Source of the DNA: Eledone cirrhosa | Taxonomy: Eukaryota | Direction: 5' to 3' | NCBI GenBank assembly: GCA_964016885.1 | Contig: OZ024753.1 | Coordinates: 10,726,001-10,790,000, forward strand | DNA length: 64,000 bases | In this document: positions 3,965 to 28,733 of the stretch, one piece after another | Numbering within the stretch: position 1 is the first letter of the stretch | How the letters are laid out: every line of letters begins with the position of its first letter | The notes under the pieces: generated by a model | The model's input: only the letters and a program-made list of their open reading frames with translations | The model's database searches: none | What the model was told of the DNA's origin: nothing | Translations under genes and position numbers: made by a program

Positions 3965-4174
3965 AGGAACGAGTAGGACCCCGACGGCTGAGCTCAAGCC
4001 GTTTCGACGGCTAATTCTGGACTAAAATCATTTTAGTCCAGAATTAGCCGTCGAAACGGCTTGAGCTCAGCCGTCGGGGTCCTACTCGTTCCTATTACCC
4101 ACTCTACTACCCTAAGTATTGAGTACTTTGGTGCGTTATGGTCCACCTGATTCTTTACCACATTTCCTCCGTTA
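3965..4174 (+). mobile_element. Family A fold-back element
   Basis: Palindrome 3965-4093 centred at about 4029; same tail as the copy at 1424. Confidence 0.8.
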
Positions 4175-4189
4175 TATATATATATATAT

Positions 4190-4770
4190 TGGTAACATGT
4201 ATCCCAGTACAACCTGACCCATGGTCGGGTCGTTGGCGACTAAACTGGCAACCCCACCAAGGTTTCCTGGTGAGGAGGGTGACTTTGGACATCCTACAGG
4301 ACTAAAAACAAAACCTGTCAAAAGCAAAGGCGCTCTTAAGAGTCAAGGGCCATCCAAAATCACCGGGAGAGATGACCCCTTAGCCTTTGTCAAGGCAGAA
4401 TTCTAGGAGAAGGAAAACTCTGATATAACACCTGCAACTCTGATCGTATCCAATGATGTTGACTTGTTCTTCTTTTTGGTAAATATCATCCTAGTTAAGA
4501 GAGTGGGACTGGCTTTGTGCAGTGCCTTTGCTCACTATAAAAGCTTCACGGCACAGGTATTGCTTTATATCTGGAGATCTCTCTGCACTTGTCACATGGT
4601 ACCATGGGCCCAGCACTATGTGTCAATAATTGTCACAAGTGTAGTGTTTGTATCAGAGTTTTCAAGTCGCTGGCTGCACTAAAAAGTCACACTCGTTCAG
4701 CGCATCGGTAGGGGTTCTCCTACATGGATATAAAGTAGTGGCCGTACTCGAAAACGAGTTGGCAGCCACC
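4190..4770 (+). mobile_element. Bipartite non-autonomous RTE element, subfamily C
   Basis: RTE 5'UTR-type motif ctaggagaaggaaaactctga, a remnant C2H2 finger (CSVC..F..LAALKSH), the 3' hairpin ctcgaaaacgag and an (AT)n tail. No RT. Confidence 0.7.
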
Positions 4771-4842
4771 ATATATATAGTAATAATAATAATATATATA
4801 TATATATATATATATATATATATATATATATATATATATATG

Positions 4843-5003
4843 AAAAGAGTCAGGACCCCGACGGCTGAGCTACGGCCGGAGCTCGGCCGGAGCTCAGCCG
4901 TTGGGGTCCTGACTCTTTTCCTATTACCCACTCTACTACCCTAAGTATTGAGTACTCTGGTGCGTTATGGTCCACCTGGTATCTTACCACACTTCTTTGT
5001 TAT
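4843..5003 (+). mobile_element. Family A fold-back element, shorter arms
   Basis: Palindrome 4843-4920 centred on gagct; same tail. Confidence 0.78.
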
Positions 5004-5112
5004 ATATATATATATATTTTTTTTTTTCAATGTGGTCTACCCTTCATGGTAGGGTCCGTACAACTTGACTTTGTTATTATTTTCATTGTTAAATTAATAT
5101 ATATATATATAT

Positions 5113-5885
5113 GATGGCTGCCCCGTCGATATCGAGTATGGCCATTGCACGATATACCATTATTAATAATGGCAGTATCGGTAGAGGGTTGGACGCCATG
5201 CTTTCTAGCATAGTTACGTCCCTTTACAGTCCGAGTTCAAATCCCGCCGAGATTAACTTTGCCTTTCATCCTTACGGGGTCGATAAAATAAAGTACCAGT
5301 AAAGTACCAGTAATGTACTGAGTAATTGCTGACCTTGTGCCTAAAGTAGAAACAATTAATTAATTCTATCGTGCAATGCCTGTGCGAGAAGATATTTTTT
5401 AAAGTGAGGAAAGACTGTGCACTGAGCCAATCCCACTCTCTGAGCGACAGTAGCTATAACCCGAAAAGAAGAAATGATCAACATAATCGGTAACTACTGA
5501 GCCGCAGGTTTTATATCAGAGTTATCCCAGTTTCCTGAGTTGGCTTCTAGAAGAATGCCCTGACAAGGGCTAGGAGTCCTTCACTCGCAGTGGTTTAACA
5601 TCGCGATCGGGTGTCCAGCCCGACTATTTCTATGTCCCCGTGCAAATACATACATATGTACATGTGTATATATACACATATACATACATATGTACATGTA
5701 TATATACATATTTACACACTTTTGGATGGTCGTTGAGTCTTATGAGTTCTTCCGCCCTTTATCAGGTTTTGTTTTTTTGTCCTGCAGGGTGTCGAAAATC
5801 ACCCTCCTCACCAAGTAAACTTGGTGAGGTTGCCGGTTTAGTCGCCGACGACCTGCCAGGTTGTACTGGGTTACATGTTACCAGT
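5113..5885 (-). mobile_element. Bipartite RTE element, subfamily D, interrupted by a SINE at 5170-5357
   Basis: The 5' part 5367-5885 is homologous to 29507-30021 and, more distantly, to subfamily C. The 3' end tggccatactcgatatcgacggggcagccatc(AT)n lies at 5113-5154. Confidence 0.65.
5170..5357 (+). mobile_element. tRNA-derived SINE family 1 (Nin/Deu-like core)
   Basis: A box tggcagtatcggt, B box gagttcaaatccc, core gcctttcatccttacggggtcgataaa. Confidence 0.8.
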
Positions 5886-5931
5886 ATATATATATATATA
5901 TATATATATATATATATATATATATATATAT

Positions 5932-6265
5932 ATACGATATTAAACAAATGGAAACTATATTTATAAAACAATATTTATTTCATTATACATATCAGGGATA
6001 CCATATTAAAAATATGGCATGCCTTCTTCAGATAAAATACAATATATAAGCAGTTTTATAAATAAATTTGACGTACCATAAATATTGATCAACTTCCATG
6101 TAAGAAGTTGGTTTGAAATATGTATAATGAAATAAATATGCTTTTATAAATATAGTTTCCATTTGTTTAATATCGTATATCTACTCCAAAACTTGTTGAG
6201 TGCTTTATATCAGTTATGAAATATTTGCTTGTTGTAACCCAACAATTTTAAATAAAACTTTTGCA
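5932..6265. mobile_element. Family E element pair in inverted (fold-back) arrangement
   Basis: 5932-5992 is the reverse complement of about 6117-6180. The minus strand carries CTGAAGA-stem II-GA(ta), a degenerate hammerhead. Flanked by (TA)n. Confidence 0.65.
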
Positions 6266-25790: not shown

Positions 25791-26546
25791 AGGTTTCCCA
25801 GAGCTCCTCGCGATATTGCTATATTTTACTCTGGTAGCGGTTTATTTATTTTTTTTTTTTCCCACAGACCAAAAGTATTTTTAGGGTGAGGAAATTTTTC
25901 TGTAGATATGTGTATCTCAATTGTGTTAAAGGACTGGTCAAGAGTTCAGATGGGGGTAGCGAAGAAGGGAAATGTAAGCTAGAGACAATTGTTATAGGGG
26001 AGAGGGGTATATAGGAGAGTCAAAGGTATAGGATTTTAAAATAAATTCTGAGAGAGAGAAAGGTGGATATTAACATAGCTATATGGTGTGACAGATAGAT
26101 AATGCAACCATCGAGGAAACAAACCAAATTCCAAGTCCTTACCAATGTGTCCGAACACGGAAGAGCTGAACTCCCACTGTCATCACCTCCACCTCTCTCG
26201 CCCTCCCCATCTCTCTGTATTATGAGCGAATGGGGTCCCAAGAGCTGGCCGCCCATGGCCCTGGCGGACATTATGGAAAAGGATTGTAACGGAGATGCGC
26301 TAGAAGAGCCATTCCATATCGTGAGGCTCGCACGTGAGGCTAGCCAGGTCAGCGCCTATCGTGGTAAGTAGGGAGGTTACCTCAGGGCCAAGGACACCAG
26401 AAGTCTCCACTCTTTCGCCTGCCTTTTGTTGTATGTGGTCGTAGATGTATGTATTGCTTGCCTCTTGGATTTTTTTTCTTTTTCTTTTCTGCTCTCCCTT
26501 TCCTTCTCTCTTTTTTAATTATTTGTAATATTTTTTATGTACAAAG

Positions 26547-26722
26547 AGCGGTGGATTGGCAGTATCGGTAGAGGGTCGGACGCCATGCTTTGCAGCAGAG
26601 AGTTACGGATCTTTACGATCCAGTCGAGGTAACCTTTGCCTTTCATCCTTACGGGGTCGATAAAATAAAGTACCAGTAATACACTGTGGTAATCGCTGGC
26701 CTTGTGCCAAAACTAGAAACAA
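26547..26722 (+). mobile_element. SINE family 1 (3' half also at 30543-30640)
   Basis: Matches the family 1 consensus with the B box deleted. Confidence 0.78.
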
Positions 26723-27370
26723 ATATTTACCTACAAAATAAAGCACTTTAAAAAAAATATTAAAATACAAAATTTATTGATTAGTTTTAATCTTAGATGC
26801 TGGACAAACCAGCTGATGTTTCATTTTCTCGAATCAGATTTTGTATATTTTAGTATTTAGCTTAATTTTACATCGAAACAACTCGTTACTGTGTAAAATG
26901 GTTTAATTTGGTCGAATATTGCTTTGGTGGATGATAGAGAATAATCTCCAGGTTATGTTGTTGAATAGTTCCATATGTTAAGGAAAATTAGAATGTTTGA
27001 AACCGGCAAACCATTCCTTTGTCTATATAAATATATTCCTACTGAGAAAAAATCGGATTCACGAGACTTACAGTAGGCACGAAACGAAAGAAATGGTGTA
27101 TGTGCGTATGTTAAGATACTCTTCCTGCTATTTCAAGCGTTAAACTAATATGTTTCTTCCACATACTATGTTTTATTACTTTTACACACACACACGTGAG
27201 TGAGGAGGGGGGTAACCACCGTTATCAAGGTACTCAATACATTAGTAGAGTGTAAACATCAAGTTTAATATAGAAATGACTAGAACTAGATATATTTTGA
27301 ATGAAACAGTTCTTGTCCTCTGTGTGTGTGTGTGTGTGTGTGTGTGTGTGTGTGTGTATATATATATATA

Positions 27371-27530
27371 TAATGAAGGAAGTGTGGTACGGAACCAGAT
27401 GGACCATAACGCACCAGAGTACTCAATACTTTGGGTAGTAGAGTGGGTAATAGGAAAATGTTTAACCCTCGACGTCAGAGCTCAAGCCGTTTCGGCTTGA
27501 GTTCTGCCATCGGGATTAAACATTTTCATA
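27371..27530 (-). mobile_element. Family A fold-back element, diverged copy in reverse orientation
   Basis: Tail gtggtacggaaccagatggaccataacgcaccagagtactcaatac followed by hairpin 27455-27527. Confidence 0.72.
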
Positions 27531-27546
27531 TATATATATAATGTTT

Positions 27547-27713
27547 ATCCCGGGTTCAATCGGGGGTAACCACAGTAAGTAAGGTACTCAATACAAAGCA
27601 GAGTATAAATATTTAATATAGAAAAGGCTCTACGGGACTAGAACTGTTTCATTCGAGAGAAATCATGATGATTTCTCCCGAATTAAACAGTTCTAGACCT
27701 GTAGAAGCCTTTT
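27547..27713 (-). mobile_element. Family B fold-back element (partial copy also at 27207-27320)
   Basis: Palindrome about 27620-27713 centred on aatcatgatgatt; tail shared with 18026. Confidence 0.68.
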
Positions 27714-28532
27714 CTCTCTCTCTCTCTATATATATATATATATATATATATATATATATATATATATATATATATATATATATATATGTATATGTATATG
27801 TGTGTGTGTGTGTGTGTGTGTGTGCGCGTGTGTGTGATGGTAGCTAAGATGCTTCCATAGGCAGTATGCCGGTTGAGAACTCTATGTTCTTACAGAGCAG
27901 AGTGTGATATCATATAAAACGTTATATATATAATGATTAAACACATATAAATAGGTATATAATTATATACGCATAGACACTGCTATATAATTACGCTTTT
28001 TCCTAAACACACTGTGTGAATGTGTGTGTATGTCTGCATATGTGTTTATCCAAACATGTTTCGTGTAAACATGTTTTGACTTTTATCTGACTTTTGATAA
28101 AGTCACAGCTGTTGAGTTTCTCTGATATAACCATAGGGGGTCAAACGATCATCATTCAACAGTATATTCACACATATTCAGACAGAAACTAACACACACA
28201 CACACATATATATATATATATATATATATATATATATATATATATATATATATAAATTAATAAAAACAATGAAATAAAAACAAAGAACAGGTTCCTTCCT
28301 TATATTGAAAAATTCATCATTTTACGATCGTTTCTGGGATATATATGTGTGTTGGTATGTATATCATATTAAAGATCTATGTAAAAAAAATATTACAAAT
28401 TATCAGAGAGGATATACATACCTTCACACACGTTTTTATTAATTTATCTTGACTCTGTTTTCCTATGATTTTTATCGTTGATTTTTGAATGCATATATAT
28501 ATATATATATACATATAAAACATACATATATA

Positions 28533-28733
28533 TAGTGGTAGAACACTGGAAGGTAATATCCGTAGTGGTAGAGCACTCGGTCCATGGGACGAGTTAGGTA
28601 GAAGTGGTTACACAACAGTTAGTTCACCATACCGAGAACAATTGTTTCACCTTAGCGGATCCAAGCTGAGGATCCGCTAAGGTGAAACAATTGTTCTCGG
28701 TATGGTGAACTAACTGTCGTGTAACCACTTCTA
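28533..28733. mobile_element. Family F fold-back element with hammerhead core at its centre
   Basis: 64-bp arms at 28599-28662 and 28670-28733 with loop aagctga. Reads CTGAGGA-TCC-GCTAA-GGT-GAAA-C-AATT-G-TT from 28666. Confidence 0.72.

Follow-up and report, generated by a model that had tools for sequence, protein, structure and literature searches.

The 64,000-nucleotide (nt) stretch of the Eledone cirrhosa genome analyzed here (GenBank assembly GCA_964016885.1, contig OZ024753.1, positions 10,726,001 to 10,790,000; hereafter the window) contains a short motif predicted to fold into a bulged hairpin. The motif recurs in four families of small inserts, named A, B, E and F, where its place is fixed with respect to the two insertion ends. 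Going by their sequences, these families are likely to be derivatives of Penelope-like elements (PLEs) of the Hydra clade. By analogy with a PLE whose protein has been purified, we assign a probability of about 60% to the reading that the hairpin is an RNA site bound in trans by a reverse transcriptase (RT)-endonuclease, and that it would set the starts of copying just 5' of itself and 35–68 nt 3' of itself.

Each copy of the hairpin sits inside an insert of 130–330 nt within a microsatellite. A search of the whole 64-kb window with the pattern ACTC-N8-20-GAGT-RC recovered 10 matches, all between 1.5 and 28.6 kb, against a mean of 1.42 (standard deviation 1.42, largest 9) in 100 dinucleotide shuffles, none of which yielded 10 or more; it should be noted that the 10 matches are copies of four families and not independent events, and that this relatedness inflates the shuffle test. 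The five sites quoted in the initial annotation were all located where it had placed them, at 4101–4126 (+; copy A2), 6183–6203 (+; E1), 12585–12607 (+; E2), 18062–18082 (-; B1) and 28573–28594 (-; F1), and five further copies were found at 1545–1570 (+; A1), 4930–4955 (+; A3), 27419–27444 (-; A4), 27230–27251 (-; B2) and 27584–27604 (-; B3), the A of ACTC in minus-strand copies being the higher coordinate. When the terminal RC was not required, the pattern ACTC-N5-25-GAGT gave 16 sites, the other six having spacers of 6, 7, 17 or 25 nt and different contexts. A covariance model built on the 10 copies, which themselves score 27–37 bits by construction, detected no additional copy above 15.8 bits in the window. 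Self-comparison with blastn connected the copies inside each family, and no connection among A, B, E and F was found at E below 1e-4.

The predicted layout of the hairpin is ACUC, a covarying inner stem of 3–4 base pairs (bp), a loop, usually a 2-nt pyrimidine bulge, and GAGU-RC. RNAalifold, unprompted, paired ACUC with GAGU and predicted an inner stem of 3 bp with 2 bulged nt on its 3' side. The inner stem is UAC/GUA in family A and B2, UGC/GUA with a G.U pair in B3, CAA/UUG in E1, AGC/GCU following a C.A mismatch in E2, and a G/C-rich, 4-bp GUCC/GGAC in F1, where the bulge is a single C; that of B1 carries an A.A mismatch. Pairing holds in 94% of 70 cells and both sides change in three of the seven pairs, as compared with 12–51% pairing in slid-register controls. 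The outer stem is invariant within the window because the search pattern fixed ACTC and GAGT. The loops, which had initially been regarded as unrelated, turned out to contain the inner stem and the bulge, and families A and B have many of the 'loop' letters in common.

Position of the hairpin between the two insertion ends

The hairpin had been described as lying downstream of a ribozyme, and its position is indeed fixed, although what lies upstream is usually only the 3' half of the ribozyme. This [GC]AAAY hammerhead core half was found 46–72 nt upstream in 8 of the 10 copies, compared with 12–13% of background positions; no such core half lies upstream of A3 and B2. E2 alone has a complete core 5' of the hairpin and on its strand, in a type I hammerhead-like motif (12470–12535, +; core at 12480, with CAAA replacing GAAA) whose predicted cleavage nucleotide, 12524, lies 60 nt 5' of the hairpin. 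By descriptor, whole hammerhead-like motifs occur at six places in the window (9015, 11552, 12480, 18362, 28666 and 28886), two of them in family E, one on the family F arm and none in A or B; for the latter two families hammerhead 3' halves were seen, and no whole core of family A was found anywhere in the window. An Rfam search returned no hammerhead among the 150 of 339 matches listed, nor did three further searches listed in full, and no match listed reached the gathering score, the matches being microRNA models on palindromes and microsatellites.

On the 3' side, (TA)n is reached 35–68 nt past the hairpin in nine of the ten copies (background 8%), while the tail of the tenth, B2, meets (TG)n; the read piles described below agree with this for families A and B. 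The tails measure 46 nt in A1 (insert 1426–1616), A2 (3964–4172) and A4 (27373–27527), 45 nt in A3 (4842–5000), 35 nt in B1 (18020–18218), 43 nt in B3 (27540–27712), 61 nt in E1 (5935–6264), 68 nt in E2 and 38 nt in F1. The B2 insert (27195–27320) is truncated.

On the 5' side, seven of the ten copies begin with an inverted, 5'-truncated copy and carry the tail on one side, which is the typical layout of PLEs (PMC8557442, PMC3846280). The outer end of the inverted arm adjoins a microsatellite and maps 0–15 nt 5' of ACTC, at -5, -7, -5 and -5 in A1 to A4, -15 in B3, -4 in F1, and within the TA patch preceding ACTC in E1, where the arm fades into TA. Copies B1, B2 and E2 have no arm ending at this proximal site, and in none of the seven arm-bearing copies does the arm enter the hairpin. 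The A2 fold-back (3965–4093) is 99% self-complementary and contains a hammerhead 3' half, and the F1 fold-back (28599–28733; 95.5%) bears a whole hammerhead-like core on its inverted arm (28666–28695, +). A solo family E arm without a hairpin (E3; 18253–18476, +), with a whole hammerhead-like motif at 18362–18410, ends at the identical place to the arm of E1. We noted that the fold-back centers of family A shift (-63.5, -72, -49 and -47) while the outer ends stay fixed; the center estimates for B3 and E1, being disturbed by TA runs or gaps, were not used. The palindrome center never coincides with the hairpin, and two to three TA letters are common to the target and most arm ends. As read from the sequences, the hairpin is the element that opens the Penelope 'tail'.

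Four sequencing runs were mapped at 80% likeness to positions 27373–27666, which span A4 and B3. This drew in 22,444 raw reads and 20,607 contigs from one organism, 8,083 contigs from a second and 71 from a third, and families A and B are therefore very abundant and common to relatives. Reads leave the A tail at 27375/27376 (6196 and 1247 raw reads, the larger pile going into a plain (TA)n run) and the B tail at 27542–27548, into TA/TG runs, and many opposite-strand joints at differing places mark fold-backs in other genomic copies.

Other inserts in the window share some of these features. Three copies of a family G (28764–29015, +; 27095–27184, +; 1175–1225, -), with a hammerhead-like motif at 28886–28913, have an approximate end point in common and no ACTC hairpin; they may be arms whose copying began at the proximal site, or G may use a different signal. 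Among the short TA-flanked pieces of a family H (1008–1053, 1088–1134, 1223–1252 and 1290–1331), two open with AGTAC and run on for about 41 nt, resembling a tail severed at the 3' strand of the hairpin, and one forms a head-to-head joint with a family G piece. The ACTC hairpin is missing from an insert present twice, at 8951–9205 and 11488–11742, which has inverted ends of 37 nt and a complete hammerhead-like motif (at 9015 and 11552, respectively); it belongs to a segment repeated at 100% identity (8629–9182 versus 11166–11719), which is a recent duplication or an assembly repeat. A repeat family of about 580 nt, mostly TA-flanked (4190–4770, 9644–10251, 10329–10920, 29506–30021 and 5366–5884), in which no hammerhead was found, has ACTC-N6-GAGT about 10 nt from one end in three copies, without a bulge or an inner stem.

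Hydra-clade Penelope-like elements as likely relatives

PLEs of the Hydra clade have a (TA)n target, canonical hammerheads and open reading frames (ORFs) encoding an RT and a GIY-YIG endonuclease (PMC8557442). The inserts of the window are like them in the (TA)n target. The Hydra elements also have a type I hammerhead near the 3' end with a short palindromic stem III, for which the inserts offer the whole motifs recognized by descriptor in E and F and the 3' halves in A and B, the stem III of family B resembling that of Hydra-1_Amil; the inserts differ in being stubs of 130–330 nt without an ORF. A six-frame search of the window for RWK, DKT and CxCX5C motifs found no PLE RT motif and no Hydra RT/GIY-YIG ORF. 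An RT fragment at 32572–33234 was considered as part of an autonomous PLE and rejected: it matches PF00078, is located away from the stubs and lacks all the PLE motifs searched for.

The initial annotation had proposed that the motif be looked for in autonomous PLEs, and there, at least in the Hydra clade, it is present. All six new Hydra consensuses in File S7 of PMC8557442 were inspected by eye, without computation, and the same hairpin was recognized in four, from coral, sea cucumber and copepod; the outer A-U pair of the window becomes G-C (coral and sea cucumber), and the inner stem is different in every one. In the coral Hydra-2_Amil it consists of GCTC, 5 bp, TT and GAGC-AC, 43 nt past the cleavage site and followed by 26 nt; in the sea cucumber Hydra-2_Ajap, of GCTC, 3 bp, TA and GAGC-AC, at 38 nt and followed by 25 nt; and in the copepod Hydra-1_Crog, of GCTC, 4 bp, AG and GTGC-AC with one mismatch, at 47 nt and followed by 43 nt. 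A second variant, GCCC...GGGC-AC, is plausible near the 5' start of Hydra-1_Crog. The consensus of Hydra-1_Ajap ends about 46 nt past the hammerhead without a hairpin, and has two copies (GCTC, 4–5 bp, a 2-nt bulge, GAGC-AC) at its 5' start, ahead of the ORF; in this element the hairpin therefore begins the following unit, and such a beginning is what constitutes a tail. Where a copy or consensus terminates immediately 5' of the hairpin, its 3' end has none, as a model with two starts predicts. Its distance past the cleavage site, 38–47 nt or at the unit start in these consensuses, compares with 25–60 nt in the window. As a control, four 8-mers were searched in the 584,000-character supplement of PMC8557442; of the 21 matches, three were Hydra hairpins, 16 were nothing and one was a near match with two mismatches, the remaining one being taken up below. 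In five Hydra-clade hammerheads (File S2 of PMC8557442) stem III is ACTC-N-GAGT, the letters of the outer stem of the hairpin; the stem III of the window hammerheads is not ACTC/GAGT.

The four families, initially described as unrelated, thus look like derivatives of one clade, and the motif was therefore likely inherited and kept by selection, not independently reached. The suggestion that it is a conserved cis signal survives in that the hairpin has a fixed place relative to both insertion ends, covaries and occurs in autonomous PLEs, but not in that it unites unrelated families. It could also be a relic of this common ancestry without a present role, as would suit the probable relatedness of the families, the letters that A and B share beyond the need of pairing, and the weakness of the fold. 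We consider this improbable, as the motif persists with paired changes among families that have no blastn tie, and is also found in the coral, sea cucumber and copepod elements. A different identity for the stubs would be that of non-autonomous rolling-circle (Helitron/Helentron-like) elements with a subterminal hairpin, which, by the usual traits of that group, would account for inserts that are short and non-coding, have a hairpin near one end and show no target duplication readable in a microsatellite. This is very improbable, as the hammerhead-like motifs stand where Penelope elements have theirs, the inserts are inverted and truncated at the 5' end to varying extents, and the same hairpin occurs in elements whose ORFs encode an RT and a GIY-YIG endonuclease.

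Animal non-LTR (long terminal repeat) retrozymes and solo minimal hammerheads (PMC7229834, PMC4209133, bioRxiv 10.64898/2026.07.22.740005) are likewise non-coding and hammerhead-bearing and have been proposed to borrow Penelope proteins, and solo and opposite-strand motif pairs are noted in the same sources. However, retrozymes are head-to-tail tandems with whole ribozymes, whereas the window stubs are head-to-head fold-backs with mostly half a ribozyme. No head-to-tail array with whole hammerheads was found among the tandem repeats or self-matches of the window, and since the stubs form no tandem arrays they are not retrozymes. The accessible parts of these three sources mention no conserved downstream hairpin, and the motif letters were not found in two supplement files of PMC4209133. 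The elements are hence of a known kind, and the hairpin seems to be undescribed: the initial annotation knew of no description, none was found in print in a search outside which lay Repbase notes, subscription papers and several supplements, and the main text of PMC8557442 has no match for hairpin, stem-loop or bulge.

Metagenomes were searched with a Poseidon/Neptune-like core plus YGAGTRC, a pattern biased away from Hydra-type cores. At least 116 loci were recovered, with ACTC upstream in 4 of the 116 listed. The hairpin descriptor was passed by none of the 12 listed loci with sound stems I and II and by five of the other 104, and the motif is therefore not universal to PLE hammerheads. With the covariance model, the best match among 26 loci hand-picked from these was L023 (E 0.056). 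In this locus (398–426, -) and the related L129, a hammerhead is followed by GCACTC...GAGTGC, between which an inner stem may form beside a U bulge of 4 nt; this is possibly a relative of the hairpin in another PLE family. Among viral contigs the A/B hairpin was matched by 14 stretches, none with a hammerhead core upstream, and a hammerhead plus TGAGTRC gave six chance-like matches; prokaryote genomes yielded no match for a Hydra-type core and phage records no match.

A candidate recognition site for the reverse transcriptase

The purified protein of the Anolis element PAc nicks AT-rich DNA and extends both strands; copying starts at two internal positions of the RNA, one at each limit of the tail, and the RNA must reach past them (PMC11167929). 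This protein was modelled as a dimer, and its binding motif was narrowed only to a 172-nt region (PMC11167929). The window inserts are like PAc in their one-sided extension between two ends, in the AT-rich target and, in the mechanism proposed below, in the extension of both strands. PAc differs in that it belongs to the Penelope/Poseidon clade and starts in an 'AC-rich stem loop', and the stretch in the window, the hairpin plus 35–68 nt, is longer than the 30–40 bp PAc tail (PMC11167929).

In the mechanism that we favor, an RT-endonuclease supplied in trans would bind the hairpin, thereby choosing its RNA, and would nick both strands of (TA)n. One nick would prime complementary DNA (cDNA) synthesis at a TA-containing spot 0–15 nt 5' of the hairpin, giving an arm without it, and the other would prime 35–68 nt 3' of the hairpin, giving a copy with a tail. 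The two 5'-truncated cDNAs would then be joined, the junction varying in place but often falling within the self-complementary stems of the hammerhead, to produce a head-to-head fold-back with a tail on one side. The signal would be kept only in tail-bearing copies, which could be copied again, and the recopying of these copies only would explain how stubs of 130–330 nt come to form families. The geometry and the conservation are observed, and it is from the PAc analogy that the binding, the two starts and the two templates are drawn. Bulged stem-loops that recruit an RT include the 3' stem-loops of long and short interspersed nuclear elements (LINEs and SINEs) and epsilon of hepatitis B. These too are small internal hairpins with a conserved bulge, common to autonomous and non-autonomous partners; they belong to other enzymes and have other sequences, and are an analogy only; in the window, copying would start on both sides of the hairpin.

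Standing at the 5' start of the repeat unit, the hairpin could serve transcription start, RNA stability, translation or the control of hammerhead folding, the RT start being adjacent only as the unit boundary. Such a role before copying would fit the two 5' copies ahead of the ORF in Hydra-1_Ajap, the promoters contained in Penelope terminal repeats (PMC6765202) and the ACTC/GAGT stem III of several Hydra hammerheads, which could permit alternative pairing. We regard it as unlikely, given that the hairpin is kept in stubs without an ORF, even where the hammerhead is halved, that the stems of A and B are unvaried among the variants listed, and that the window hammerheads have a different stem III. 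Slightly less probable again is a signal at the level of DNA, in which the motif would be recognized by the endonuclease within the repeat of the element itself, or would form a single-strand hairpin to prime or resolve the intermediate (self-priming on an antisense template). The Penelope endonuclease of Drosophila virilis depended on the tail to recognize DNA (cited in PMC11167929), self-priming on antisense templates has been proposed for head-to-head palindromes (PMC3846280), and the wobbles are split between the strands, with a sense G.U in B3 and a C.A, equivalent to an antisense U.G, in E2. Still, a one-sided bulge and a variable loop length suit a folded single strand and not a duplex site, the hairpin is never at the palindrome center, and the sense-strand fold is favored in E1, E2 and F1.

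Several points weigh against recognition of the hairpin by an RT-endonuclease. The isolated hairpin has a weak predicted energy (-0.5 to -7.3 kcal/mol), its outer pairs have a probability of only 0.11–0.24 in the local context of A1, A2 and A4, where another family A fold competes, the sense strand is not favored over the antisense in B1 and B3, and an inner pair is broken in four of the ten copies (A1, B1, E2 and, in the register used, F1). Covariation of the outer stem rests on the published consensuses judged by eye. Of these, Hydra-1_Amil has a partial form, with a wobble in the outer stem and a TT bulge but no inner stem, and Hydra-1_Obim, the sole octopus Hydra consensus, has no clear hairpin at either end. 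The remaining match of the 8-mer control is a full one, located away from the end of a consensus that is not of the Hydra clade; the motif may extend beyond Hydra, or this match may be due to chance. As no Hydra ORF is present in the window, clade membership rests on non-coding features, and as the PAc RNA shown in Fig. S1 of PMC11167929 has no ACUC/GAGU, the mechanism is carried over from another clade. In favor of the reading, none of the 36 variable places listed for thousands of genomic copies fell on the 32 stem or RC positions, as against 23 on the 139 positions of loop, bulge, tail and spacer (Fisher p 0.009); against this, the places come from the 40 variant rows listed out of 93, and mapping itself favors conserved letters. 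Among the variants listed, the hairpins vary only in the letters of the loop and in the second base of the bulge, which changes from U to C in 10–29% in three runs. Finally, no read pile stands at the proximal start among the loose ends listed for the A4/B3 mapping.

The hairpin bears on how PLEs pick their RNA and on why they have a one-sided tail and inverted ends. Rather more tentatively than the reading above, we suggest that it may be the first RNA recognition element to be defined for an RT that is Penelope-like and related to telomerase: an element of 20–26 nt with the form RCUC, stem, 1–2 nt bulge, GAGY-RC, kept across several phyla and acting as a ruler, with a dimeric RT-endonuclease on two RNAs starting cDNAs just 5' and 25–70 nt 3' of it, such that any RNA bearing it would be insertable into (TA)n. 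If true, the ruler would account for the Penelope tail as well as for inversions of the head-to-head kind, and would bear on template recognition by the enzyme group closest to telomerase. A short covarying hairpin between two insertion ends, common to autonomous elements of three phyla and to very abundant stubs in the window, can be aimed at precisely in tests of binding, mutation and rescue, and could serve to trace orphan hammerhead stubs back to the clade of their parent.

Other repeats and genes in the window

A dispersed repeat of about 190 nt, which we take to be SINE-like, is present in more than 15 copies or fragments (5170–5360, 18883–19084, 26543–26729 and others), some of them in tandem arrays; a 45-bp array of 39 copies at 36589–38341 is derived from a piece of it. 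The region 19141–25562 is a tandem array of 239 copies of a 27-bp unit. A broken non-LTR reverse transcriptase (32084–33237, +) matches PF00078 with an E value of 2.5e-24. The 121-amino-acid frame at 52543–52908 (+) has no Pfam match and resembles a piece of a mariner transposase. A long exon at 42878–44158 (-) encodes a MuSK-like receptor tyrosine kinase domain, which matches a MuSK structure with an E value of 3e-128.

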